37,938 bases of DNA from a virus (taxonomy: Duplodnaviria > Heunggongvirae > Uroviricota > Caudoviricetes). How positions within the stretch are numbered: position 1 is the first letter of the stretch; every line of letters begins with the position of its first letter. Location of the stretch: the IMG/VR virus record IMGVR_UViG_2778261139_000008. One strand, 5' to 3'. Positions 1 to 37,661 of this stretch are shown piece by piece. Below the pieces are notes generated by a model. That model searched no databases. It was not told the DNA's origin and was given only the letters and a program-made list of their open reading frames with translations. A program made the translations under genes and the position numbers.

Positions 1-229
1 TCATAGGTCGCTCACATCCTTAAGCGTTACCGGGCATTCAGGCTGGACAGTTAATGGCTGCCAGGGAAGCGTGGCATAGAAACGATCGCTTCCCGCTGCC
101 AGCTCTTCGAACATCCGACTCCCGGCGCTATCGTATTTGTACAGGGTTAGCGCCTCGCGTAGCGAAGTGTTGTCTTCGCACTGAGAAGATTGCCAGTAGA
201 GACGTCCTAACGAATAGGCGGAAAAATAG
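1..229 (-). CDS. Fragment of a flanking (host) ORF of unknown function, running off the window start; possibly truncated by the prophage insertion
   Basis: Minus-strand frame open from the phage end region down to position 1 with no stop; no recognisable family. The boundary at ~229 is a guess. Confidence 0.25.
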
Positions 230-249
230 TGCATATAGCGCGGCGATTT

Positions 250-330
250 TTTTGATACCGATTTGCATTTCATTTGATACCGCTGAAAAACGCCGATACG
301 CAACTTATTTGATACTAAATCGGCGCTTTT
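250..330. repeat. Cluster of direct TTGATAC(C/T)/GATACG repeats; candidate transposase end-binding sites of the phage right end
   Basis: GATAC at 255-259, 277-281, 295-299 and 311-315 (spacing 22/18/16 bp), about 40-110 bp beyond the mom stop, where Mu carries its R-end MuA sites. Does not match the Mu consensus exactly. Confidence 0.35.
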
Positions 331-361
331 CTTTTGAGTTTTAGAATGAGTTTTTAAGCGC

Positions 362-1099
362 TCATTCACTCTCTTTCAAACCAGTTTTAACTGTTTGTGG
401 TTTTGGGTAAGGCTGGACTTTGAATAGCTTTGTGTTGAGGCGTTTTCTGGCCCTCTTGTTCAGAAACCGGATGTAACGAAACTGTCGGAACTTATGCACA
501 CTGGCTCTGTCGATATTAGCCCTCAGATGTTCACCTCGTTGTCCGCCTCGTTTAATGGCACTCCTGCAAATCTCGTGATACCACTCGCCATCAAGTTCAT
601 AGAATGTTGATTCATGGCTGCCTACATAATCAAAATTGCTTGCCTGATACACGACACCAAGACAGCCACAACGCTCATCTGCAAACGACTGAACCCACTG
701 TACCTGCGGATAAAGCTGCCTGATTAGCTTGAGCGCGTAACTGATTGCCCTTGATTCGGAGTTTCTCGGCATACAGTCATGCATCCATAGCCGGTTAAGC
801 TCCATATATTCTCGGTTCTGCGTACCCGTTACGACGCGTGCACCACTGTTTGGGTTAAGGGCGTAACCCCATTGCATTACGCCAACAAGTTCCCGTTCTG
901 AAAATATACCCAGATGAAGGTAGGAATTATTTACGAAACGGTGGCTGTAATGTTTATTGACGATAACCAGTCTGGCCAGCCAGCAACTTATTGTCTCAAC
1001 CCGCAACTCACGGGAGCCATAACCAACGATATTGTCGTTATAGCGAATAAGTTCAGGCGTGCTGATGATACGGGATGTGACTTGCTTTCTGTTCCCCAC
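362..1099 (-). CDS. mom: Mom-like DNA modification protein
   Basis: 245-aa ORF immediately downstream of, and overlapping, a Com-like zinc-finger gene at the phage right end, as in Mu com-mom. The annotated start is GTG, so the true start is uncertain. Confidence 0.7.
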
Positions 1100-1253
1100 G
1101 ACAGGATTTCCTTGTGTATGTGGGGTGCTCTGTGGCGCTCGGAGATGTGATTTGATTGAGGGTTTTACAGCGCGGACATTTTACTTCCAGATAACTGAAA
1201 CTGGCCCGTGCCAGTAGCTTATTGCAGTGTCGGCACCGTATGTTTCGATACAT
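1053..1253 (-). CDS. com: Com-like zinc-finger translational activator of mom
   Basis: [10 protein letters not shown]...VKCPRCK C4 zinc-finger closely resembles Mu Com. ATG at 1253 with AGGAGG upstream; the ORF track extends to a TTG at 1298. The 3' end overlaps mom by 47 nt. Confidence 0.8.
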
Positions 1254-1298
1254 GGCCGCATAACCTCCTGCTTTGTTGTTGATGCCTTTCTCATGCAA

Positions 1299-1440
1299 TC
1301 GATCGACAAAAACGATCGATTCGATTTGTTTAATTGATACAACAAATAGATTTAAAAGTCATCAACAATGATTCAGGGCGGTGATTATTTACTTAAAGAA
1401 ACGAAGAGTTAGGTGGTGAAAACGATCATAAAATGATCAT
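1299..1440 (-). promoter_or_regulatory. Candidate com-mom promoter/regulatory region with GATC clusters
   Basis: AT-rich region upstream of com with GATC at 1301-1304 and 1314-1317 (embedded in a CGATCGA...CGATCGA repeat) and a second pair at 1424-1427 and 1435-1438. In Mu, mom transcription is Dam/OxyR-controlled through clustered GATC sites. Confidence 0.4.
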
Positions 1441-1525
1441 TTTATTGACTTTTTATACAGTGAAGGTAGGATCGCGCGTATATGTAGTATGTTTCAAATC
1501 AACAGGATACTACATAAAAGGGAAA

Positions 1526-1551
1526 CCCAGCATAGCTGGAACTATGCTGGG
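1526..1551 (-). terminator. Hairpin (10-bp perfect stem CCCAGCATAG/CTATGCTGGG, 6-nt loop) followed by a T-rich tract on the minus strand
   Basis: Perfect inverted repeat seen directly. T-rich run (TTTCCCTTTTAT) on the minus-strand 3' side. No obvious upstream gene on that strand, so the function is unclear. Confidence 0.3.
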
Positions 1552-1659
1552 TCAATCTGTAAAAACTTGCATCAATGCTTTACTTCGAGCTCGTGGCGTA
1601 TCCTATGATATTCCCCGGTCTCCTGTAAAGCAGAGATGCATAAAAAGGAGATCTTTATC

Positions 1660-1830
1660 ATGGATAAAGAGCCTGTTTGCCCTGCCTGTAAGACTCCCTT
1701 ACAGCTCATCTATCGCCGTTCTCGATCTCAAAATGGCAAGACATACAAACCAAAAAATGCTTCCTGTTTCAGGATGCTGATATGTCCTGCCTGTTCTCCC
1801 CGGAGGGAAAATACACAAAACGTGCATTAA
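1660..1830 (+). CDS. Small zinc-ribbon protein (CPAC...CPAC), unknown function
   Basis: ATG at 1660 preceded by AAAGGAG at good spacing; 56 aa with two CPAC pairs; plus strand, convergent with the cargo operon. Confidence 0.4.
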   Translation: MDKEPVCPACKTPLQLIYRRSRSQNGKTYKPKNASCFRMLICPACSPRRENTQNVH

Positions 1831-1839
1831 CAAATTCAC

Positions 1840-1859
1840 CCGGCAGGGAAACCTGCCGG
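1840..1859. terminator. GC-rich hairpin (CCGGCAGG-GAAA-CCTGCCGG) between convergent genes; probable bidirectional terminator
   Basis: Perfect 8-bp stem with GAAA tetraloop located between the stop of the plus-strand Zn-ribbon ORF (1830) and the stop of the minus-strand 81-aa ORF (1869). Flanking T-rich bases are modest. Confidence 0.5.
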
Positions 1860-1868
1860 TCGGTATTG

Positions 1869-2114
1869 TTACATCATAGTACCGTCAGTTCCGGGTTGAA
1901 CCGGCTCTGGTTGCTCTACGGGTTGAGGCTCATTTTCCGTGCTGTTTTCAGCCGGAGAACGACCAACCATTCGGGCCAGCACTTCATCAACATATGCGTC
2001 GATTTGTGCCTCAAAATCCTTGCGAACCTGCGCCTTCAGCACGCGGTTCACTTCTTCAGAATAAAGTGCCTGTTTGACAAGCTCTTCAGTAACCGTGCCT
2101 TTAATCTCTGGCAT
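1869..2114 (-). CDS. Hypothetical protein, 81 aa, acidic Pro/Glu-rich C-terminus
   Basis: ATG-started ORF directly downstream of the small membrane ORF in the cargo operon; no family recognised. Confidence 0.5.
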   Translation of the reverse strand: MPEIKGTVTEELVKQALYSEEVNRVLKAQVRKDFEAQIDAYVDEVLARMVGRSPAENSTENEPQPVEQPEPVQPGTDGTMM

Positions 2115-2149
2115 GAATATTCTCCTTTCCTTTTCTGGTTCACAAAAAA

Positions 2150-2329
2150 TTAAATCTGACCGGAGTCTTTCGGCTGCGGCATTACAGCACCGCTTTTTAT
2201 CTTTTCCTCGGCAGCTGCATCAATTTTATTTCGAAAATAATTGCGAATAATTTTATAACCACCGCTGACAAGCAACAGACAACAAACCACCGTGCAGAAA
2301 TACAGCAGGCAGACGTTTATATATGTCAT
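2150..2329 (-). CDS. Small membrane protein (59 aa; one N-terminal TM helix, charged C-terminal tail)
   Basis: Hand-translated: MTYINVCLLYFCTVVCCLLLVSGGYKIIRNYFRNKIDAAAEEKIKSGAVMPQPKDSGQI. ATG at 2329 with GAGG-type RBS. Below the 60-aa cutoff of the ORF track. Confidence 0.45.
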   Translation of the reverse strand: MTYINVCLLYFCTVVCCLLLVSGGYKIIRNYFRNKIDAAAEEKIKSGAVMPQPKDSGQI

Positions 2330-2386
2330 ATAAGCCTCACTCTTATTAACTGATGTTACAGCCGGATAAATTCCCGGCCGTCACGA

Positions 2387-4435
2387 TTATGCCGCAGGGG
2401 TATTAACCTCAAGGACAACGCTCTCAAAAGACACGCCATAAGTTGCCCCTTTGGTGACATCTGTCAGTGTCAGCGTATCTTTGGCAGGGGAAAGTGCATC
2501 TTTCACCATCTGGAATGCCTGGCCCGGAGTGCCATCCAGCACAGGCGTTACCTGGGCACTTCCCGCCGTAAACTTCAGGACAAGTGTATGCCACTGGTTA
2601 TTGTAGGCTCCAAATGATCCCAGTTTCGTATTCCCCCCTGTTTTATGGTGCATCAGATTTAACTGGCCGCCTGTTGTCTGGAGATAATACGCCATCAGGA
2701 ACGGTGTGCCTGTACCACTCATGGTTACACCTTCCGGGACCGTATCGGTGTGGAGGTAAATACCCAGAGCAAACTGGCCTTCTTTTACTTCACCTGACAG
2801 ACGGAATTTACAGGTCAACTGACCACCATGCTTCAGAAGTTCACCGGCTGCATCAGTTCCATGGGTAAGCGTCCAGGTTTTTCCGCTTTGTTTGGATACG
2901 GTCAACGCTTTACCTTCGTCCGTCAGCTGGATTGTACCATCTGTAATTTTCCAGCCCTGAGCCGGGGCTTCTCCTGCTGATGCTTTAAGTGAAAGCAGCG
3001 TACGGAGTGACGGGGATGTCGGATGGGGGGACTCACTGCCTCCTGGCTGACTACCTGTCGGCGCTTCCGGTTTCCCACCCGGCGCGGGCTGAGGCAGGGC
3101 TTCACCATCAGGGGCCACACCGGCAATAAATGCAGAGGTCAGACCTGCATATTTAAGAATTGCTGATGCAAAACGATCTGAGACCAGAAAACGGCGCGCC
3201 CAGGAGCTAAAATGGGTTGCCCTGGATGCTGTTGTCCAGTTGCCATCTCCCCGTGATTCCGCACCATAATACCCGGCAGAAGCGATATCCGGGTCGTGCT
3301 CCGGCAGGTTGGTCGCGGTTTTATTACCGAACTCATCGTGCATCAGTGGAACAAAGTGAATGTTCTCGGAAGCCCGGTTTTTATATCCGCTATAAATGGT
3401 TTCATATGCCGCCGGGTTCTTCTCTTTCCAGTCATAGGTTGTGTCACCACATAACCACGGCACACTGTCTGATGAACCACCAATACACTGACCGGAGAAA
3501 GCACCAAGATCCGCACGGAATTTTTTCACCATCGCAGTAAACTGGGCACCATGCTGGGCCGGGGTCGCTTTAAGGTCTCCTTCCCCCTGAATCCATACGA
3601 CAGATAACAGCACATTCTTTGGATTCGCCTCAAGTGCCGCTTTAGTTCGACTGACAAGATCCTGATACAGTGGGGTATCCACTCCCCAGCGTAGTGACGC
3701 CTCGGCTGCACCACTTGCCGGATCGAATGAGCCAACTGCGCCGGTTGTAAAAGCAGAGCCGCCACGGGCACAGGGAACCAGTAAAATCCCGGCATCAGCA
3801 GGAATCACCGGTAATACTTTTTTCGCAATATGAAGTCCCTGCCCCACACAACCATACTGCCCTTTTTTCAGGTCTGCTTTTGGATGGTTCAGCAGACTCA
3901 TATTCTGAACATCATGAAGGCAGTGATCTGCTGGAATGATTTCATTGTATTTGCAGGGAATACCTCCGGGGGTTTGTGTATTCCTGCGTGCCAGCTGCAT
4001 AATACGTGGATCAGGACGATCATAAGAATCCGGAAGGGGCAACCCTTCACCATAAGATGAAGCATTGGACTGGCCGGCTATAACAATCACGTAATACCAG
4101 GAAGGGGAGCTGGAAGCAGTTTCATTTCCTGACGGACGGGTATGTGTTTCAGCATTATCCCAGTCTGACGGTTCAGCAGTACCGGCAACATCAGCACTTA
4201 ACGGAATGACCGCACCAATACCCGCTCCGGTAATTTCCACACTCGGATCACCGGATACTGGCCTTACCCACAGGCAATCCCGTGTATTAAAACTGATGAG
4301 ACAGTCAGCAAATGTCATTCCTCCTTTTGTTTCGGCCGGAGGAAAGGGAGCCTCAAGAAATGCCGCTGTACCACCGGAAACTTTAACAGTAAAGTTTCCG
4401 GGCATTGATGATAGTTGAACCCATTTGGACGTCAT
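2387..4435 (-). CDS. SGNH/SASA-family carbohydrate O-acetylesterase-like protein with Pro/Gly-rich linker and C-terminal beta-rich (lectin-like) domain; NanS-p-like or tailspike-type deacetylase
   Basis: 682 aa, ATG start. Motifs VIVIAGQSNASSYGEG and VVWIQGEGD match the nucleophile and acid motifs of sialate O-acetylesterase-type SGNH hydrolases. Low-complexity P/G/S linker near residue 440. Not part of the canonical Mu gene set. Confidence 0.6.
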   Translation of the reverse strand: MTSKWVQLSSMPGNFTVKVSGGTAAFLEAPFPPAETKGGMTFADCLISFNTRDCLWVRPVSGDPSVEITGAGIGAVIPLSADVAGTAEPSDWDNAETHTRPSGNETASSSPSWYYVIVIAGQSNASSYGEGLPLPDSYDRPDPRIMQLARRNTQTPGGIPCKYNEIIPADHCLHDVQNMSLLNHPKADLKKGQYGCVGQGLHIAKKVLPVIPADAGILLVPCARGGSAFTTGAVGSFDPASGAAEASLRWGVDTPLYQDLVSRTKAALEANPKNVLLSVVWIQGEGDLKATPAQHGAQFTAMVKKFRADLGAFSGQCIGGSSDSVPWLCGDTTYDWKEKNPAAYETIYSGYKNRASENIHFVPLMHDEFGNKTATNLPEHDPDIASAGYYGAESRGDGNWTTASRATHFSSWARRFLVSDRFASAILKYAGLTSAFIAGVAPDGEALPQPAPGGKPEAPTGSQPGGSESPHPTSPSLRTLLSLKASAGEAPAQGWKITDGTIQLTDEGKALTVSKQSGKTWTLTHGTDAAGELLKHGGQLTCKFRLSGEVKEGQFALGIYLHTDTVPEGVTMSGTGTPFLMAYYLQTTGGQLNLMHHKTGGNTKLGSFGAYNNQWHTLVLKFTAGSAQVTPVLDGTPGQAFQMVKDALSPAKDTLTLTDVTKGATYGVSFESVVLEVNTPAA

Positions 4436-4534
4436 AATAATCAGCCTGTTCCTGAATAAACTGAATTATCATATCCACAGACCGATAAACGCCATTTTGC
4501 GTTAATTCAGTAAAGGCCCAACAAAGAGAGCGTC

Positions 4535-5095
4535 TTATTTTTCCGAAACGCTCGCAGGATAATAACGATAAAGGGTTGAAAGACCGATATCAAAAATAAG
4601 TGCCACCTGTCTTCGACTGACACCCCCGGCCAGTAAACGCCCGACCTGCTCGTATTGTTCCTGCGTGAGACGGCGGGGTCTGCCGCCGGTTCGTCCCCTT
4701 TCACGGGCAGCTGCAAGACCAGCCCGTGTCCGTTCGACAATTAATTCACGCTCCATTTCTGCCAGCGCACCCATTATGTGAAAAAAGAAACGCCCCATGG
4801 GGGTTGACGTATCAATGTTGTCAGTAAGACTACGAAAATTTATCCCCTGTTGCTGTAATTCATCTGTCAGCGCAACAAGGTGGCGCATACTGCGCCCCAG
4901 CCTGTCCAGTTTCCAGACCATCAGTGTGTCACCGGGTTTTAGTTTCTTCAGTGCCCGCTTCAGTCCCGGCCGCTGTGTCGTTTTACCACTCATTTTGTCT
5001 TCAAAAATCTGCTCACATCCTGCACATTCCAGCGCATTTCTTTGTAAACCGGTGTTCTGGTCATTTGTTGATACGCGTATATAGCCAATCAGCAT
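4535..5095 (-). CDS. gin: Gin-type serine DNA invertase
   Basis: N-terminus MLIGYIRVSTNDQNTGLQRNALECAGCEQIFEDK... is near-identical in pattern to Mu Gin/Hin/Cin resolvase-invertases (catalytic Ser in RVST). C-terminal HTH. Adjacent to a gix site. Confidence 0.95.
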   Translation of the reverse strand: MLIGYIRVSTNDQNTGLQRNALECAGCEQIFEDKMSGKTTQRPGLKRALKKLKPGDTLMVWKLDRLGRSMRHLVALTDELQQQGINFRSLTDNIDTSTPMGRFFFHIMGALAEMERELIVERTRAGLAAARERGRTGGRPRRLTQEQYEQVGRLLAGGVSRRQVALIFDIGLSTLYRYYPASVSEK

Positions 5096-5150
5096 GTATT
5101 TACCTTCCTTAAAAAGAGGTGAAAATGCCTTTTAAAACAGATATACGGTA

Positions 5151-5176
5151 TCCCTGAAAACCTCGGTTTACGGGAA
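5151..5176. other. gix recombination site (gin-proximal)
   Basis: TCCCTGAAAACC-TC-GGTTTACGGGAA: 26-bp imperfect palindrome matching the hix/gix half-site pattern TTCYTGNAAACC, 55 bp upstream of the gin start. Confidence 0.75.
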
Positions 5177-5545
5177 ACGGTAAATAAGGCTGCTGATGCC
5201 CTGCCATCGGGTGGAACCGCCGTGGCAGCAAACAGACTCGCCACCCCAAGAAATATTAATGGCGTTCCTTTTGACGGAACGCAGGATATCAACATCACGT
5301 CAGGAATGACGCAGTCAACCGCAGATGGCCGGTATGTACAGAATGTTCAGCTTGGAGCACAGAGCTATCATTCACCCGGAGGCAATGAAATATCATGGAA
5401 TTACAGCGCACCTTCCGGTTGTATGCTTTCCGGTATTAACGTGCAGGAAACCGGCTCCCGGTCTGCGGACAATATCGGTGGGGTCTATTATCGCCCGGTT
5501 CAGATTTATATTAATAATGCCTGGAGAACGGTAAGTTCAGTGTAA
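5165..5545 (+). other. Silent alternative tail-fibre C-terminal cassette (Sv'), promoterless in the current orientation
   Basis: Plus-strand frame reads ...GLRETVNKAADALPSGGTAVAANRLATPRNINGVPFDGTQDINITSGMTQS... from the gix site, paralleling S residues ~177-230 and then diverging to a different C-terminus ending at 5545. Confidence 0.7.
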
Positions 5546-5555
5546 ACCACAGAAA

Positions 5556-5574
5556 AGGGTGCTGAATGCACCCT
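5556..5574. terminator. Short hairpin between convergent Sv' cassette and U gene; possible terminator
   Basis: 7-bp stem (AGGGTGC/GCACCCT) with 5-nt loop lying between the Sv' stop (5545) and the U stop (5580). Confidence 0.35.
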
Positions 5575-5579
5575 CTGAA

Positions 5580-6101
5580 TTATTCCGGTTTTTCCGGCCA
5601 GGGAATCGCCTGGTAATGCCCCTCACTGGCAATATCATTAAAGTGCATTTCTTTAAGCTGTCGGATATACGCCATCCAGCGCGTCAGCTGTAATTTATTT
5701 TCATCGCTAATCATGTCCAGTTTTAATTCTGTTTTCCAGTCATCCACGGTTTCGTTGGCTTCCTGGAGCAGCGATGAGCGACGCTTTTCAGCAACCGTCT
5801 TCCAGTTTACCGGCACCTTTGATATCAGGCCATCAGAAAACTGCCAGTTACCGTCAATATTCACACCTTCCGGCAGTTCGTCCACTTCAACAACAGTAAA
5901 ACCTGCCGGATATAAAGCAGAGACATCTTCAGCAACAGAGCAGATAATACCCGTTACAGGCGAAATACAGAGTTTGTATTTCTTTGTGAAAAGCGGGATA
6001 GATTCATAAAAATCCCTTCCGTCCTCACTCTGGAAATACTGAACATCCTCACCATAGGGTTTGTGTTCCGGGTAATATCGTTTTACGTTAATAAGCTCCA
6101 T
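5580..6101 (-). CDS. Tail fibre assembly protein (Mu U-like / Tfa family)
   Basis: ~173-aa protein directly downstream of the tail-fibre gene. ATG at 6101 with AAGGTG RBS; the ORF track start at 6212 overlaps S and is less likely. AT-rich like other tfa genes. Confidence 0.75.
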   Translation of the reverse strand: MELINVKRYYPEHKPYGEDVQYFQSEDGRDFYESIPLFTKKYKLCISPVTGIICSVAEDVSALYPAGFTVVEVDELPEGVNIDGNWQFSDGLISKVPVNWKTVAEKRRSSLLQEANETVDDWKTELKLDMISDENKLQLTRWMAYIRQLKEMHFNDIASEGHYQAIPWPEKPE

Positions 6102-6180
6102 TATTTCACCTTGTTTTTGTTGAAAAGACAAAATCATCATATATTTATTCAGATAATCTGTTTTTTGAACTACTGCACTT

Positions 6181-7068
6181 TTATGCGCTGGAAGCTGTTT
6201 TCCACGAACCATCTATCAGAAACTGAACAGGTCGATAATATGCGGTTACCGTTGCATTACCATCACCAGCGACATCAAGCCCTGTAAGTACGCATCCGTC
6301 AGGAACTTCAAAAATATTATATTGCATTCCAATCGTTGACCTTGAACCTCTTCGAATGCTTTGAACATAACGTGAGTCAGCCACAGACTGCGTCATCCCC
6401 GATGTAATATTTATATCCTGCGTTCCGTCAAATGGGACACCATTAATATTTCTTGGAGTGGCGAGTTTATTCGCTGCAACAGCCGTTCCGTTCGATGGCA
6501 GGGCATTCGCCGCCTTATTTACCGTTTCCCGTAAACCGACGTTATCGATAAAAGCGCCTTTATCCGGAATGTCTGCGCCGTTCTGCTCCCTGCGCAGGTA
6601 ACGGTTATCACCTTCGCTTTTGCTGTAAACATCCAGATTATTACGGGCGGTTCCCGCATTCTCCAGGTCGGCAAGGTTCTGATCCTTCGCCAGAGCATTA
6701 ACGTCACCGGGACCAAGACTGTTTTTTGTGGCAAGCGCCCCAAGACCAAGATAACCACGGGCAAGACGCTGGGCTTCCGCACCGGCATCAGCAATTTCTT
6801 TCAGGTTGTTTTTCCGGGAAAAGGCATTCGCAGCGATAATGGCTTTAATGGACAGCGTAAGCTGGTTTAACTGCGCCTTATCCGGCTGAATACTGGCTTC
6901 AGCCAGAATATTCAGCAGTTCGGCCTGGAGAATATTCAGCCAGTCCTGACCAATCCAGCTGATACCTTTTTGTCCGTCACCTTCGGTAAACCAGGTGGTG
7001 GTATTACTCTGCGCCGGTGCCAGCGCAGGCATATTCGCCACGCCGGAATTATTATCAACATGAAACAT
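6181..7068 (-). CDS. Tail fibre protein (Mu S-like); constant N-terminal part plus invertible variable C-terminal tip
   Basis: 295-aa ORF after the baseplate genes; a gix site lies within codons ~177-187; the C-terminal ~110 aa is homologous but divergent from the silent Sv' cassette. Confidence 0.8.
   Translation of the reverse strand: MFHVDNNSGVANMPALAPAQSNTTTWFTEGDGQKGISWIGQDWLNILQAELLNILAEASIQPDKAQLNQLTLSIKAIIAANAFSRKNNLKEIADAGAEAQRLARGYLGLGALATKNSLGPGDVNALAKDQNLADLENAGTARNNLDVYSKSEGDNRYLRREQNGADIPDKGAFIDNVGLRETVNKAANALPSNGTAVAANKLATPRNINGVPFDGTQDINITSGMTQSVADSRYVQSIRRGSRSTIGMQYNIFEVPDGCVLTGLDVAGDGNATVTAYYRPVQFLIDGSWKTASSA
6526..6551. other. gix recombination site (inside the S gene, constant/variable junction)
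   Basis: TTCCCGTAAACC-GA-CGTTATCGATAA; its first half-site is identical to the inverted half-site of the 5151-5176 site. Confidence 0.7.
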
Positions 7069-10859: not shown

Positions 10860-12213
10860 TAATCACCTCCACTGAATGGCCTCCGGGAATGAACAGCGGA
10901 TCAACAATACCGTTACGGCGCACAAAACGTTGCCAGCCGGTACTGTTCCCGGTGGCACGGTACAGGGTCACCAGTGCAGGCTCGGTGGTACGTACAGTCA
11001 CTACTGTTGCACCGGGTAGCTGAACTCCCCGTGTATTCAGATCCTCTGTCAGTGCCAGTCTGGCATCACGAAGCGTCAGCGCCGTGGCGGTATACCCCTG
11101 CCCGGACAGTGTCATCACCTGCCGTTCGAGCGCTTCGCTTAAGTCACGGTTAATGCGCTGAAGATCAACTGAACTTTCCAGCCAGACAGGCCAGGTACGG
11201 TGGGCTGCGTCACTGTCCGGCAGGGTTTCCTGACTGAGAACCTGATCCAGCAGTTTTCCCACGGTCTGTGCCTGGGCCACCACGGCAGCACTCTGCATTA
11301 CCGCCCGTATCAGACGAATATTCTTTTGTGCTGCCGGTGTCAGACCGATGAGAGTCTGCGGATTATCCTGCTCATCCAGCACGTAACGCAGGGAAGATAA
11401 TGTCCTGTACAGTTGCGGCATTCCCTGAGAGACGGCGGATGTCGTCCGGCCGATACTGCCACCGGGCCGGGTATTCAGGCCTCCTGAAGACAGTGACGGC
11501 AGCGATGGCAGGGTGATCAGGGCACTGAAAAGCCCCGCAAAAGATGAGGCCATGCGGGAAGGTGCTGTCAGTAATGCCGTGGCATTCCCTTTCAGCGCCG
11601 TGAACGTGGCAGTAAAGGCACTGATATCCTGTACAATCCCCATGCCGGAAACGGCATTTTCCAGGGCGGACACCTTATCGCTGATGGTTTCGGTCATTGC
11701 CTGGACATCGTGCATTCCGTCAGAAATCACCGTCCAGCCCGCTTCCAGGGTTTCAAAAACCTTCCCGAGCGCGGTGGTACTCTTCTGCTCCAGAATGGCG
11801 GCCGTGTCCTGTGTGACAGCAGGTGCGGTATCATCACTTACCGGCGTGACATTAATGGTGAACTCAACCACGCCCTGTTCAGCAGCGTTATAACGACTTT
11901 CAAAGCTGTTTATCAGCACATTTAACGTGCCGTAATCCGGGTGAAGCAGCTCCCCGGCACCGGGTGCACGAAGGGCATCACGCAGACGATTTCGCTGTGT
12001 CTGAACATCATCCCCCATCACAAGTACACTGAACGTAAATTCAGCCAGTTTAGGTCCCAGATCGTCTGCACCACCGGTTTCCCGTAACGGATATTCCCGA
12101 CGGACAATGTTTCGCCCGCCACGTTCGCGCTGCTCACGCCAGACGAGGAACGGCACACCACGGAACGCACCACGACCGTCACCAGAGGCCATAATTCCCT
12201 CCGTTCCAGACAT
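10843..12213 (-). CDS. DNA circularisation protein (Mu N-like)
   Basis: 456-aa ORF immediately after the tape measure gene, overlapping its end; typical Mu N position. Confidence 0.75.
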   Translation of the reverse strand: MSGTEGIMASGDGRGAFRGVPFLVWREQRERGGRNIVRREYPLRETGGADDLGPKLAEFTFSVLVMGDDVQTQRNRLRDALRAPGAGELLHPDYGTLNVLINSFESRYNAAEQGVVEFTINVTPVSDDTAPAVTQDTAAILEQKSTTALGKVFETLEAGWTVISDGMHDVQAMTETISDKVSALENAVSGMGIVQDISAFTATFTALKGNATALLTAPSRMASSFAGLFSALITLPSLPSLSSGGLNTRPGGSIGRTTSAVSQGMPQLYRTLSSLRYVLDEQDNPQTLIGLTPAAQKNIRLIRAVMQSAAVVAQAQTVGKLLDQVLSQETLPDSDAAHRTWPVWLESSVDLQRINRDLSEALERQVMTLSGQGYTATALTLRDARLALTEDLNTRGVQLPGATVVTVRTTEPALVTLYRATGNSTGWQRFVRRNGIVDPLFIPGGHSVEVISEQQG

Positions 12214-14254
12214 TCACATCCAGTCCGTGACCGGACGTGTCATCAATATCAATACTGCGAGCCTGCCACCCTTCCGGGGCAACCAGCTCCACACGGGCAG
12301 AGGCTTTTTGTACCGCCTGTCCACTGCTTTCATCATCACTGCCCCGTAATTTCTGCCAGGCTTCAGTCAGCCATCCCCCCAGATAGTTACCGAGATAGCT
12401 GCCCACCGTAGAACCAATGGCAATCCCCACAGGTCCGGCTGCCGCCCCCAGCGCACCACCGGCAATACTGCCTGCAAGAGAGCCGACCGCTTCTCCCTTG
12501 TCTGTGGCACTGGCGCTGCCATCCAGCAGAACCGGGGCTGCCATCGCGCCAGCCCACAGGGCACCTCCACCCAGCCGGCCGGCCAGTCCACCGGCACTGC
12601 GGAAAAAGCCGGAGAAACGCCCCAGCCCCATGCGGCTACCGACAGACGAAAGTAACCCACCGGCGCGCCCCATCATGCGCCCCCAGAACCCTGCCCCACC
12701 AGAAGAGGGAGACGGTGGCACTGGGGACGGTGGCAGGGGAGGCGTGACCGGTCTTCCGCGCCCCGGTCCGCGTTTCCTGCGGCCCCGCCCCTGACGTCCG
12801 CCTGAGGATGTATCGGTCGCGCCGGTGCCGGACAGTCCTCCTGTGGGCCAGTTTGTTACAAGTACTGGCTGAACGGCTGCCGGATTTACCCCGGTAAGAA
12901 AGTTTATAAAACGTTGCCCTCGTCCCTGAGATGTGCCTGGTGGTGTTCCGGCCGGAGGAGAGCGCCGGAAAGGTGAAGTCAGGAAGGCCGCCGCTGATAA
13001 TCCGTATCCCAGCAATGCAGCACCCGGACGTATAATCCCCGTTCCGACAGCCCGCGCCATTTTCAGGGCACGGGTGGCGAGATACATGTACAGCAGGTAT
13101 TTCGCGGCAGTCTGTGCCCCCTGACCAATGCGATCCAGCGCATCACCATAGCCCGCATCCCGCAGAGCCTGAAGCGTGTCGCGTACCTTTCTGATCGCCT
13201 GATAAAACCCTGTCACTGCATCACGGGCATACTCAAAGCCCTGGTTCATGGCTGATGCCGTGCTTTCCGCCAGGGAATGGTAACTGCCATCAGATTTGGC
13301 ACTGTCAACCCATGAAAGAAATCCCCTGAGATTACCCTTCAGTTTTTCAAATGGCCCACTGTCCATCACATCCCGGGCAAACTGGTCCCAGACGTCACCC
13401 ATCATGGCCGTCAGGCCACTCCAGGAATTCATTGCGTCCTTTTGTGCTCCCCTGGCCTGTTCCGCCAGCGTCTGAAATAACAGGCGAATACTGTCCGGCC
13501 CAAGCAGCCCTTTTTCACCAAGTTTTCTGACCACTTTCTGGTCCACACCCAGACGATCAGCCAGCACGCGGTAGGCATTAATGCCGTAGGTGGCAAGAAT
13601 ATTTGCATCCGCCGCCTGAATACTGCCTCTTGCATACATCTGTTTCAGTTGCAGGGATGCCCCCTGTGCATCGGACAGTGACCAGCCGCCCACGGCCCCC
13701 TGATCCTGAAGCATGGTGACAAAATTTCGGGCCTCCCTGTCACTCATACCAAAGCCCAGACTGGACGTATATTCCTGCATGACGCCAGCCAGCCCCCAGG
13801 TGGTTTCCTTCGCATTCTGTATTGCCCACCTGCGGACATCATCCGTTTTCGCCCGATCCCCTTTGTAAAGGGAGTTCAGGCGAATCATATAGGTTTCCAT
13901 CTCCGCTGCCGGGCGAATAAATCCCCGGTTAAAGCCATATACAGCAGCACCACCGGCCAGCATTCCGTAAAGATTGCTGATCCGCCCGATGGTGCCGGTA
14001 ATACTGCCCTGAAGACGGTCAAAATCAGAAGTGACATGGCGGATACTGCCCCGCACCCCGGCCAGCGTGCGCTGCATCCTGCTTCCGAGTACATCTGTTT
14101 CCTGCCCGGCACGGCGGGCAGCATTTCCCAGGCCACCCAGCCCCGCCTGGCCGGAGCGTGAGAATGCCCCCAGCTCCTGTGACCACTGGCGGGATTTGGC
14201 TGAGATATTGCCGAGCAAATCAACTATCAGAGATGCTCTGAGATTTCGGGCCAT
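12179..14254 (-). CDS. Tail tape measure protein
   Basis: 691-aa ORF between tail chaperone and N; Gly/Ala-rich helical N-part and a long Pro/Gly-rich low-complexity segment near the C-terminus; largest tail gene. Confidence 0.9.
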   Translation of the reverse strand: MARNLRASLIVDLLGNISAKSRQWSQELGAFSRSGQAGLGGLGNAARRAGQETDVLGSRMQRTLAGVRGSIRHVTSDFDRLQGSITGTIGRISNLYGMLAGGAAVYGFNRGFIRPAAEMETYMIRLNSLYKGDRAKTDDVRRWAIQNAKETTWGLAGVMQEYTSSLGFGMSDREARNFVTMLQDQGAVGGWSLSDAQGASLQLKQMYARGSIQAADANILATYGINAYRVLADRLGVDQKVVRKLGEKGLLGPDSIRLLFQTLAEQARGAQKDAMNSWSGLTAMMGDVWDQFARDVMDSGPFEKLKGNLRGFLSWVDSAKSDGSYHSLAESTASAMNQGFEYARDAVTGFYQAIRKVRDTLQALRDAGYGDALDRIGQGAQTAAKYLLYMYLATRALKMARAVGTGIIRPGAALLGYGLSAAAFLTSPFRRSPPAGTPPGTSQGRGQRFINFLTGVNPAAVQPVLVTNWPTGGLSGTGATDTSSGGRQGRGRRKRGPGRGRPVTPPLPPSPVPPSPSSGGAGFWGRMMGRAGGLLSSVGSRMGLGRFSGFFRSAGGLAGRLGGGALWAGAMAAPVLLDGSASATDKGEAVGSLAGSIAGGALGAAAGPVGIAIGSTVGSYLGNYLGGWLTEAWQKLRGSDDESSGQAVQKASARVELVAPEGWQARSIDIDDTSGHGLDVNVWNGGNYGLW

Positions 14255-35570: not shown

Positions 35571-37661
35571 TCAGGCCAGCGGGTCATTTTCTTTTAATTT
35601 CGCTTCCAGCAACTGCAATCCCCGCTGGAAATTACGCTCGTATTCTTCATCAGGTTCATCGTCAGCGACCGGTTGCTGAACGGTCACCGTATTACCCACA
35701 GGGCGGTATATGTTTTCCAGCCAGGGCTCCTGCGGCTTGTGCTCCAGCACGTTGACAACCTCATCCTCGGCATCACGGATTTTTTCCTCTGCGCGTTTAC
35801 GCATGCCTTTAAGGCGTTGCTGCTGTTTGTAGTATTCCGCGCTAACCGGGAAGGCTTCGCGTTTATTACCGTCCCATACCGCCTCGCAAATCACGCTGCC
35901 ATCCAGGCGACGTACGGTAATTCGTTCGGCATCATGAATGTCATAGCTGATAAGCACCTTACGACCATGCTCGTCACGCAGCTCGGGCGCGTAGTAAATA
36001 TTATTCAGCCAGCGTATTTCACAGCGTCTTACAGGGCGTTCCACCATCGGCCGGAACATATCCCGCAGCTCAACATCGGACAGCCATTCAATTTCCGTGT
36101 CCTCTTCCGCCAGGCGTTTTTTTCTGAACTCCGCCGGGCTGTAATGCTTGCCGTTCGGCTTCACCGGTAATTCATCGTGCGGCCGGTTGTTGTACCACTC
36201 AACACCGTCACGAATGGCATCAATCAGTTCAGACCAGGACGGTAAATCACGCATCGCTGACTGCTGCCGGGCGTTCAGCCGTTTGCCCTGTTGCAGGGCA
36301 GTAAATGCCGAGCGTAAATCGCGGTTGGTTTTGCGTAACGTCTCGCGATCTGCACCTTTCCCGAAATAGGTGCGGTATTTACGGGCTATGCGCATCGGTA
36401 ATGTGCGGTTAAGCCGTTCGATAATGCCTCGTCCCTGCGGATTACCGGCAATCCCGGTCGGGTGATTAATCCCCAGTCGCGGCAGTATCCCCACAACCTC
36501 CTTATCCAGGATGTCGGCGGTTTCCCCGGAGCCGTTATCCGAGTAATACAGAAACGGTTTGCCGTGATGGCGAATGCCGTGCTGTATGGCACCGGCTACG
36601 GCGAAAACATTTTCAGCCAGGTCAAGGCTCCAGCCCACCACAAAGCGCGTGCCACCGTCGATAACAAAGGTCACTTCCGGTGCAAATGGCCGACCGTGAA
36701 CCGGGTGTGCGCATTTCAGCTTCATGCCGTGACCGTCACCAATCCAGACATAATTCACCGGCATTCTGGACCAGTCGCGGCGCGTGAATCCCTCAAGCTG
36801 GCGGTATTCACTGCCGGTCACCCGGCCTTTTTGTTTCACCACTTCCGGCAGTTTCTTCATTGCGCGGCGAATGGTGTCATAAGACGGCATGATATCGAGC
36901 ATATAAGGCTCATCAGCGTGCCGGTGCTGCCATTCAGCGACAAAATCCTCGTAAGCCTCGGTCATTGGTCGGCCGTTTGACTGGCGATACTGCGCCAGAA
37001 ATTCGGGCAGCCAGTTAATATCTTCGGCTTTTATTTCCTGGCGCTTACCCGGTGCCAGTAAAAGCAGGCGTTCAGCGGCGTTCTGCGCCTTGTTAAAGGC
37101 CGCAATCCAGCGTTTCAGCGTTATTTCACTCAACGCACGGCTGTTTCCCTTTTTGGCGTTCGCCGTCTCAACCATTGCCACAATGCGCTCGTCCAGTTGC
37201 GAACGTGCCAGGTTGTCAACGATAAACCGGATAGCTTTCGCACAGCTGAAACCGGGTTGTTGCGCGACTTTCATCACTTCGCTGACGATCGCAATTCGTG
37301 CATCAGCCACCTGGCGCTGGTTTTCAGTCAGGGCATTAAGGCGTTCAACCATCAGTTGTGGTGATCCGCGATATGCCTCCACCGCATCAACCACGGCAGG
37401 CGAGCGTCTGGCCTTTGTCACCACCGGAGCCGGTGATTCATCAGCTTTTTGCGTCATCAGTTGAAGGGCATAACGTTCACGCAATACTTGTTGCGCGCCA
37501 GAAGGCAAACAATCGATATTAAATTCGATTGCTTTTGTCCCCTTACGTTTGCGTAACATGGCTGCATTTCCCGCAGCTGCTTTTGTGAGTCGATGGCGAA
37601 TGTTATGTTCCATCATTGGTAAATCAGGAAGACCAACACATTCTTTTGCTGTTACCCACAT
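35571..37661 (-). CDS. A: DDE transposase A (MuA-like)
   Basis: 696 aa; N-terminus MWVTAKEC.GLP… parallels Mu A (…WVSPKECANLPGLP…); size and position between ner and B. Confidence 0.95.
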   Translation of the reverse strand: MWVTAKECVGLPDLPMMEHNIRHRLTKAAAGNAAMLRKRKGTKAIEFNIDCLPSGAQQVLRERYALQLMTQKADESPAPVVTKARRSPAVVDAVEAYRGSPQLMVERLNALTENQRQVADARIAIVSEVMKVAQQPGFSCAKAIRFIVDNLARSQLDERIVAMVETANAKKGNSRALSEITLKRWIAAFNKAQNAAERLLLLAPGKRQEIKAEDINWLPEFLAQYRQSNGRPMTEAYEDFVAEWQHRHADEPYMLDIMPSYDTIRRAMKKLPEVVKQKGRVTGSEYRQLEGFTRRDWSRMPVNYVWIGDGHGMKLKCAHPVHGRPFAPEVTFVIDGGTRFVVGWSLDLAENVFAVAGAIQHGIRHHGKPFLYYSDNGSGETADILDKEVVGILPRLGINHPTGIAGNPQGRGIIERLNRTLPMRIARKYRTYFGKGADRETLRKTNRDLRSAFTALQQGKRLNARQQSAMRDLPSWSELIDAIRDGVEWYNNRPHDELPVKPNGKHYSPAEFRKKRLAEEDTEIEWLSDVELRDMFRPMVERPVRRCEIRWLNNIYYAPELRDEHGRKVLISYDIHDAERITVRRLDGSVICEAVWDGNKREAFPVSAEYYKQQQRLKGMRKRAEEKIRDAEDEVVNVLEHKPQEPWLENIYRPVGNTVTVQQPVADDEPDEEYERNFQRGLQLLEAKLKENDPLA

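Follow-up and report, generated by a model that had tools for sequence, protein, structure and literature searches.

The locus studied here raises the question of what a long open reading frame (ORF) is doing between the invertase gene gin and the com-mom genes of a Mu-like prophage, a slot in which phage Mu itself carries no such gene. The window, namely the whole stretch of DNA that was analysed, is the 37,938-nt virus record IMGVR_UViG_2778261139_000008, and all coordinates given below are positions in it. The gene occupies 2387..4435 on the minus strand and encodes 682 amino acids (aa) plus a stop codon, counted from the first ATG. On the whole, our analysis favours, with a probability of roughly 0.75, the reading that it represents the phage esterase NanS-p in a form proper to the Mu lineage, with its N-terminal domain (hereafter the N-domain) acting as a backbone-specific adaptor. 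By its sequence, the esterase belongs to the NanS-p family, that is, the phage-borne type of sialic-acid O-acetylesterase. This enzymatic annotation is itself not new, as many copies already appear at NCBI under the names 'sialate O-acetylesterase' or 'DUF6645 domain-containing protein'. What is new is that a module with an esterase of the NanS-p type resides in Mu-like prophages and has another domain at its N-terminus, which is the undescribed part.

The sequence-only reading, made from the letters of this DNA without database searches, had called the protein a SASA/SGNH esterase, and profile and structure searches bear this out. On the 682-aa protein, Pfam detects SASA (E 1.6e-13) and DUF6645 (E 8e-26), and the PHROGs family phrog_143 covers the esterase nearly end to end (E 2e-273). 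Residues 104-429 match the E. coli NanS/YjhS structure PDB 3PT5 (E 3e-110, ~60% identity), and the C-terminal domain matches phi24B NanS-p in PDB 6YP6 (E 1e-41). The full-length AlphaFold model has three folded domains with two disordered linkers between them, and Foldseek on this model gives template modelling (TM) scores of 0.87 to 3PT5 and 0.86 to 6YP6; the next-best structural matches of the C-terminal domain are lectin-type sialic-acid- or ganglioside-binding domains. By tblastn, homologues are found in 353 phage records, nearly all of them Shiga toxin (Stx) or other lambdoid phages. The NanS-p of 933W is ~50% identical to the window protein over residues 65-679, with 67-68% in the catalytic domain. 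A weak match to a PHROG labelled 'tail protein' (phrog_25867, E 1e-6), the sole one of that label, lies inside the SASA region.

In order from the N-terminus, and all on the minus strand, the protein consists of an all-beta domain (4202..4435, aa 1-78), which stands in place of DUF1737 and whose conserved sequence core extends to a PSDW motif at about aa 92; a variable, Ser/Thr/Pro-rich linker 1 (4100..4201, aa 79-112), predicted to be disordered, with predicted local distance difference test (pLDDT) values <50 at 80-106; the SASA/SGNH type II catalytic domain (3140..4099, aa 113-432); a disordered linker 2 (3008..3139, aa 433-476, pLDDT <50 at 437-475), longer than its 933W counterpart as judged from alignment gaps; and a lectin-like jelly-roll domain, DUF6645 (2390..3007, aa 477-682), present in a divergent version termed class A. 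The Pro/Gly/Ser-rich linker (here at ~433-476) and the beta-rich C-terminal domain (here at 477-680) had both been noted in the sequence-only reading, and structure prediction agrees with them. Among four aromatic residues proposed to bind glycan, class A is without one: F555, Y560 and Y584 are kept in the window protein, and the fourth falls in an alignment gap.

For the active site, NanS provides the reference; it is described as relying on Ser19 and His301, with Gln18 forming part of the oxyanion hole, and as having no catalytic Asp (PMC9063846). In the window protein, Gln122 and Ser123 (codons 4067-4072) and His408 (3212-3214) align to Gln18, Ser19 and His301, respectively, and the three residues are invariant across all alleles examined and 39 homologues. 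The IAGQSN stretch (residues 119-124) was thus rightly taken as the nucleophile motif, Ser123 being the residue aligned to Ser19. The other motif proposed, WIQGEGD (residues 281-287), is a conserved block, with W281, Q283, G284, E285 and D287 invariant in the 39 homologues, but its label as an acid motif is unsupported, since no catalytic Asp is described for NanS. For the same reason, a missing catalytic triad would not exclude a protein from the family.

Overall, the window protein combines a NanS-homologous SASA/SGNH domain, the Ser/His and Gln residues, a DUF6645 C-terminal domain, and DUF1378 and DUF826 genes downstream, as NanS-p does. It is without the N-terminal DUF1737 (PF08410), and its gene is not at the lambdoid-prophage location, namely the late region after stx/Q and before holin S. 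Of the two readings offered from the sequence, a NanS-p-like sialate O-acetylesterase is the one that family, C-terminal domain and module order match.

The feature missed by the sequence-only reading is that the N-terminal ~110 aa differ from the DUF1737 of NanS-p. Over residues 1-115, Pfam gives no match even at E<10, and residues 1-57 of 933W NanS-p, its DUF1737 part, do not align to the window protein; on both grounds, a DUF1737 at this N-terminus was rejected. AlphaFold with an eight-sequence alignment predicts residues 1-78 to be a six-strand all-beta domain followed by a disordered linker, with block-mean pLDDT of 77-90 over residues 1-70, whereas a helix and three strands are reported for DUF1737. 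The N-domain contains no histidine, so it is not a metal-binding cupin, and no specific similarity to tail adaptors was found. In the homologue list, PF08410 is missing from the proteins that cover the N-domain and present in those whose query coverage is only ~84%; the two domains form mutually exclusive architectures. A further N-terminal architecture is seen in a 752-aa homologue (P0124), which has a tail Collar domain (PF07484) together with DUF1737, SASA and DUF6645.

The N-domain was found only in Mu-like prophages. Among the homologues, neither a stand-alone version nor a fusion to another enzyme was seen, and phmmer --max finds no paralogue elsewhere in the prophage, for example in a head or tail protein. 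An exhaustive HMMER scan with the N-domain gave five matches, one of which (P0005, with nine repeats) was judged compositional; the library is clustered at 50% identity, which hides full-length members, and the scan therefore under-reports the family. A fragment of the domain is present in Serratia. Most of the N-domain-only database entries (P0001-P0016; 10001-10461 of the Salmonella locus L021) are fragments at the ends of contigs. Assemblies made from short reads are interrupted within the esterase gene, presumably since the body is repeated among co-resident prophages, and the gene is therefore likely to be under-counted in draft genomes.

Comparison among related loci then shows how the N-domain and the rest of the protein behave in evolution. 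Two classes of esterase body are distinguished: class B in Sakai and the loci L002, L006 and L008, and class A in the window, L005 and L007. The class B body is ~80% identical to 933W NanS-p in both domains, and for class A the identity to everything else is 67-68% over the catalytic part and ~41% over the C-terminal one. The N-domain variants are uncoupled from body class, and N-domain identity tracks the backbone across loci: where the baseplate protein gp47 is 100, 91-94, 77 and 30% identical, the N-domain is 97-100, 60-66, 53 and 29% identical, respectively. The SASA domain stays at 63-68% across the same loci, even against the lambdoid phage 933W. DUF1378 switches allele with the esterase body (59% against 100% identity by body class), and DUF826 is 98-100% conserved in L002, L005, L006 and L008 irrespective of it.

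At the DNA level, the window and L002 are 97-100% identical as far as ~2128, 21-70% through DUF1378 and the body, and again 99-100% from ~4135. The breakpoints are sharp, at ~2128 and ~4090-4135, the left one lying at the 3' end of linker 1, where the identity to L002 goes from 99-100% to under 85%. This drop in identity marks the exchanged unit as ~2129-4090, with the coding region of the N-domain on one side and DUF826 on the other; the recombination cassette (2129..4090, minus strand), comprising the esterase body and DUF1378, was delimited by a binned identity profile and BLAST segment ends against L002. These comparisons suggest that the N-domain behaves as a backbone-specific adaptor, diverging with the Mu backbone while the body and DUF1378 are swapped by recombination. 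In LC727881 and LC727895 (L002), a module-bearing Mu-like phage sits inside Stx2c and Stx1a prophages; such a composite element holds lambdoid and Mu-type esterase genes together and offers an obvious opportunity for body exchange. The downstream part, namely DUF1378, DUF826 and the spacer, matches at the DNA level the same Mu-like lineage only, down to ~65-70% identity. A recent import from a sequenced Stx phage was rejected, because this part has no DNA similarity to any lambdoid phage and the body protein reaches at most ~62% identity.

Below we consider how widely the arrangement is distributed. The junction of gin and the N-domain coding region is present in 205 of the 5,426 complete genomes of E. 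coli searched, 229 of which have the baseplate backbone. We examined 13 loci with the N-domain (the window, L002, L005-L008 and L021-L027) in addition to Sakai Sp18, ECs_4992-4998; those beyond the window include two Mu-like phages inserted in Stx phages, O157:H7 and non-O157 E. coli, and four divergent alleles. All complete loci share a common order: Mu gp43-48-type baseplate genes, tail fibre and assembly protein, usually gin, the esterase, DUF1378, DUF826, com, mom or a C5 methylase, and host DNA. Insertion sites vary between the genomes carrying the Sp18-type prophage. In two gin-less prophages (L008, from E. coli RM9245, and L022), the gene immediately before the esterase is that for tail-fibre assembly (DUF4376). 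The three-gene module is a fixed, standard feature of the Sp18-type Mu-like prophage lineage and not a one-off insertion; it is also present in a Mu-like prophage of Salmonella. The description of the gene as inserted cargo suggests one recent event, which does not agree with a module fixed in the whole lineage. In Sakai Sp18, the module corresponds to ECs_4993-4995, all annotated 'hypothetical protein', and in the literature we found no description of ECs4993 or of an esterase in a Mu-like prophage. Sp18 itself has been reported as intact, with its DNA packaged efficiently (PMC2669165).

The other two genes of the module lie on the minus strand, and both encode small proteins. DUF1378 (2150..2329; Pfam E 9e-24) has a hydrophobic N-terminus, and DUF826 (1869..2114; Pfam E 3e-15) is the third gene. 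In 933W the gene order is nanS-p, DUF1378, DUF826 and holin S, and the window repeats the first three in order. DUF1378 and DUF826 ORFs downstream of nanS-p have been noted in Stx2a phages (PMC10462455).

As to function, the esterase would de-O-acetylate sialic acids, for example Neu5,9Ac2, whether as free sugars or within mucin glycans, as judged from its 60-68% identity to characterised enzymes; the activity of NanS-p on Neu5,9Ac2 and mucin sialic acids is summarised in PMC8319020. Its N-terminus is not signal-peptide-like, so that the enzyme would be outside the cell only after phage lysis. Set free in this way, it most likely serves as a sialate O-acetylesterase. In phi24B, NanS-p (gp84) is reported to be a virion protein whose DUF1737 binds as a hexamer to the central capsid hexons; fresh particles carry full-length gp84, and cleavage within the linkers comes later (bioRxiv 10.64898/2026.04.10.717836). 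Because this capsid anchor is precisely replaced here by a domain following the Mu backbone, the N-domain might, by analogy, dock the esterase on the Mu-type virion, which we consider its most likely role, though at somewhat short of an even chance. The flexible linkers would then present the enzyme and the lectin domain outward from the virion. Linker 1 of the window protein contains ASSSPS, and SSP motifs are proposed autoproteolysis sites in phi24B, but the motif is unconserved among Mu-type alleles. In a wider and equally tentative form, the N-domain could be the Mu-particle docking counterpart of DUF1737, and NanS-p esterases could be a general 'plug-in' virion decoration, with the anchor matched to the phage architecture and the enzyme, lectin and DUF1378 parts shuffled between co-resident prophages. 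A virion association had already been raised in the sequence-only reading; it is plausible by analogy with the capsid decoration of phi24B, but the reason then given, proximity to the host-range switch, is not retained.

The docking of the esterase on the particle has to be weighed against a lysogenic-conversion enzyme, which would be released at lysis and feed sister lysogens with deacetylated sialic acid, its N-domain being an oligomerisation, solubility or extra glycan-binding module conserved by the adjoining backbone DNA. We take this as a serious alternative, although the odds are on the whole against it. The growth-advantage model behind it is the published one for NanS-p, and cupin-like small barrels are often dimerisation modules, with CENP-C/Mif2 among the matches of the N-domain. 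Moreover, the support for particle association is indirect here, and homology of the DNA might by itself be enough to fix the left breakpoint. However, the N-domain is under purifying selection: among six alleles 15 of its codons are variable, with 9 changes synonymous and 6 conservative replacements, a pattern that points to selection on the reading frame. In addition, the domain is kept at 29% identity and at the same place in Salmonella enterica, where it is followed by AGQSN and located after gin in a Mu-like prophage. This locus was found by exact-sequence look-up, and degenerate-pattern scans of genome, viral and metagenome collections did not find it. The strict exclusivity of the N-domain with DUF1737, a reported capsid anchor, also speaks against this alternative. 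Finally, residues 1-64 are covered in only 2 of the 353 phage records, both with a Mu-like insert, and the N-domain is thus absent from the lambdoid phages among them, though the body recombines with theirs.

A second alternative, which the sequence-only reading found attractive, is a tail-associated deacetylase of O-antigen or capsule that would aid adsorption or alter the host range, in the manner of the tailspikes with SGNH esterases known from some phages. The position of the gene after the tail-fibre, assembly and gin genes, and directly after the tail-fibre assembly gene in the two gin-less prophages, agrees with it, as does a conserved N-terminal adaptor joined to an exchangeable enzymatic and binding part, which resembles tailspike modularity; the C-terminal domain of class A is also very divergent. 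Nevertheless, the catalytic domain is ~60% identical to NanS, a characterised sialate 9-O-acetylesterase, and 67-68% identical to 933W NanS-p, sister alleles in the same slot are ~80% identical to 933W NanS-p in both domains, and the fold of the C-terminal domain has its matches in the phi24B domain and in lectin-type domains that bind sialic acid. Furthermore, DUF1378 and DUF826 also accompany the esterase in lambdoid phages, at a distance from the tail genes, and the phi24B enzyme is reported to sit on the capsid. We therefore regard the O-antigen or capsule reading as improbable. That the gene is a decaying remnant with no current function is scarcely credible, for although the Sakai copy is annotated 'hypothetical' and the neighbouring opposite-strand ORF is frameshifted in the window, the esterase ORF is intact in each of the six E. 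coli and Stx-phage alleles translated and in Sakai ECs_4993, its 90%-identity cluster has 535 member sequences, the catalytic residues are invariant, synonymous changes dominate, and identical copies exist in at least 43 complete genomes.

Returning to the Mu-lineage NanS-p reading, we describe the surroundings of the gene. The whole window is a complete Mu-like prophage with transposase A/B, Mu portal, MuF, gpI, gpT major head protein, sheath and tape measure protein. It is of the Sp18 type, having transposase A/B, Mu-type head and baseplate genes, gin with an invertible fibre segment, a com-mom right end and variable insertion sites. The identical locus is found in E. coli 2012C-4502, where the insertion site is melA. 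The 682-aa ORF had been placed in the slot between gin and com-mom, and its exact coordinates and flanks are confirmed: on the minus strand, gin (4535..5095; Pfam Resolvase and HTH_7) flanks the esterase upstream, and com-mom (362..1298; Pfam Zn_ribbon_Com and Mom; com 1053-1298, mom 362-1099) is the downstream flank. The Mu reference has the end of gin at 35673 and the start of com at 35768, which leaves 94 bp between them. The ~3.2 kb that the window has in addition hold the esterase, DUF1378, DUF826 and a 570-bp spacer. As for the translation start, the Prokaryotic Genome Annotation Pipeline (PGAP) takes Met11 (672 aa) in an identical genome, and other alleles have an upstream MNIM. The tail-fibre segment at 5156-6543 aligns inverted to three related prophages with 92-99% identity; this G-like segment thus occurs in both orientations among strains, from which gin appears to be active in the Sp18-type lineage.

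The intergenic region between gin and the esterase (4436..4534, minus strand) is 99 bp long, without a terminator-like site or a convincing promoter. Given this short stretch free of terminator-like sites, and since the esterase abuts tail genes in the gin-less prophages, the gene probably shares a transcript with gin or with the late tail operon. A strong terminator-like hairpin, predicted by consensus scan only, with a 13-bp stem and a T-run, follows DUF826 (1524..1553, minus strand) and likely ends the module transcript. A promoter scan around the module gave background level only, and an Rfam scan of positions 1-5300 gave no match. The spacer (1299-1868) holds an opposite-strand ORF, annotated by PGAP as a pseudogene (~1369-1831, plus strand), which is frameshifted in the window and intact in Sakai as ECs_4996 (154 aa, no Pfam match). 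Its 3' part (1636-1830, 64 aa) contains two CxxC pairs, and some relatives instead have a 66-aa ORF on the esterase strand. Directly upstream of com is a palindromic GATC cluster (1296-1325), also scored as a terminator-like hairpin on the plus strand; it resembles the Dam/OxyR-controlled mom promoter region of Mu and may be its equivalent. In some loci a C5 DNA methylase (350 aa, PF00145) replaces mom after com (L002, 1665-2717; L023 and L024, ~11473-12526; L026 and L027, 11271-12323), giving an alternative DNA-modification gene in the slot normally under Com control. In addition, the Salmonella Mu-like prophage has two small ORFs between gin and the esterase (L021, 9426-9910), of 58 aa with a hydrophobic C-terminus and of 87 aa, which the E. 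coli lineage does not have.

It is believed that NanS-p esterases, of which strains carry several copies, give enterohaemorrhagic E. coli access to the O-acetylated sialic acids of mucin. Our results add a further, probably uncounted copy in the Mu-like prophage of many Shiga-toxin-producing E. coli, including Sakai (ECs_4993), so that knock-out or copy-number studies confined to lambdoid prophages miss one esterase. The enzyme itself is ordinary and already annotated; it is from the domain swap, taken together with the capsid-anchor result, that a concrete testable hypothesis follows. The replacement of DUF1737 gives a handle on whether these esterases generally decorate virions, and on how they are re-targeted between unrelated phage architectures.

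In comparison with known systems, the right end of phage Mu has gin, com and mom homologues in the same order beside an invertible tail-fibre segment, and differs in the distance from gin to com, 94 bp in Mu against ~3.2 kb with the esterase module in the window. Chromosomal E. coli NanS (YjhS, 3PT5) shares the catalytic domain (~60% identity, TM 0.87) with Ser19/His301 and Gln18 kept, and is without the N-terminal beta domain, the lectin domain or the phage context; it is a single-domain protein of ~326 aa whose gene belongs to the nan regulon. For ECs_4993 of Sakai Sp18 and for the class B alleles, slot and module are the same and the N-domain is identical over residues 1-116, but they carry the 933W-like body (~80%), only 67% and ~41% identical in its two domains to the class A body of the window, and another DUF1378 allele. 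The NanS-p of Stx phages (933W L0105 / ST933Wp42; phi24B vb_24B_21 = gp84) is alike in the SASA domain (67-68%), the Gln-Ser/His residues, the DUF6645 domain (~41%), two flexible linkers, the absence of a signal peptide, and DUF1378 then DUF826 downstream. Its gene, however, lies between the stx and lysis genes of a lambdoid phage, whereas the one described here lies between tail-fibre/gin and com-mom of a transposable Mu-like myovirus prophage, and where NanS-p has the DUF1737 capsid anchor, the window protein has an unrelated all-beta domain.

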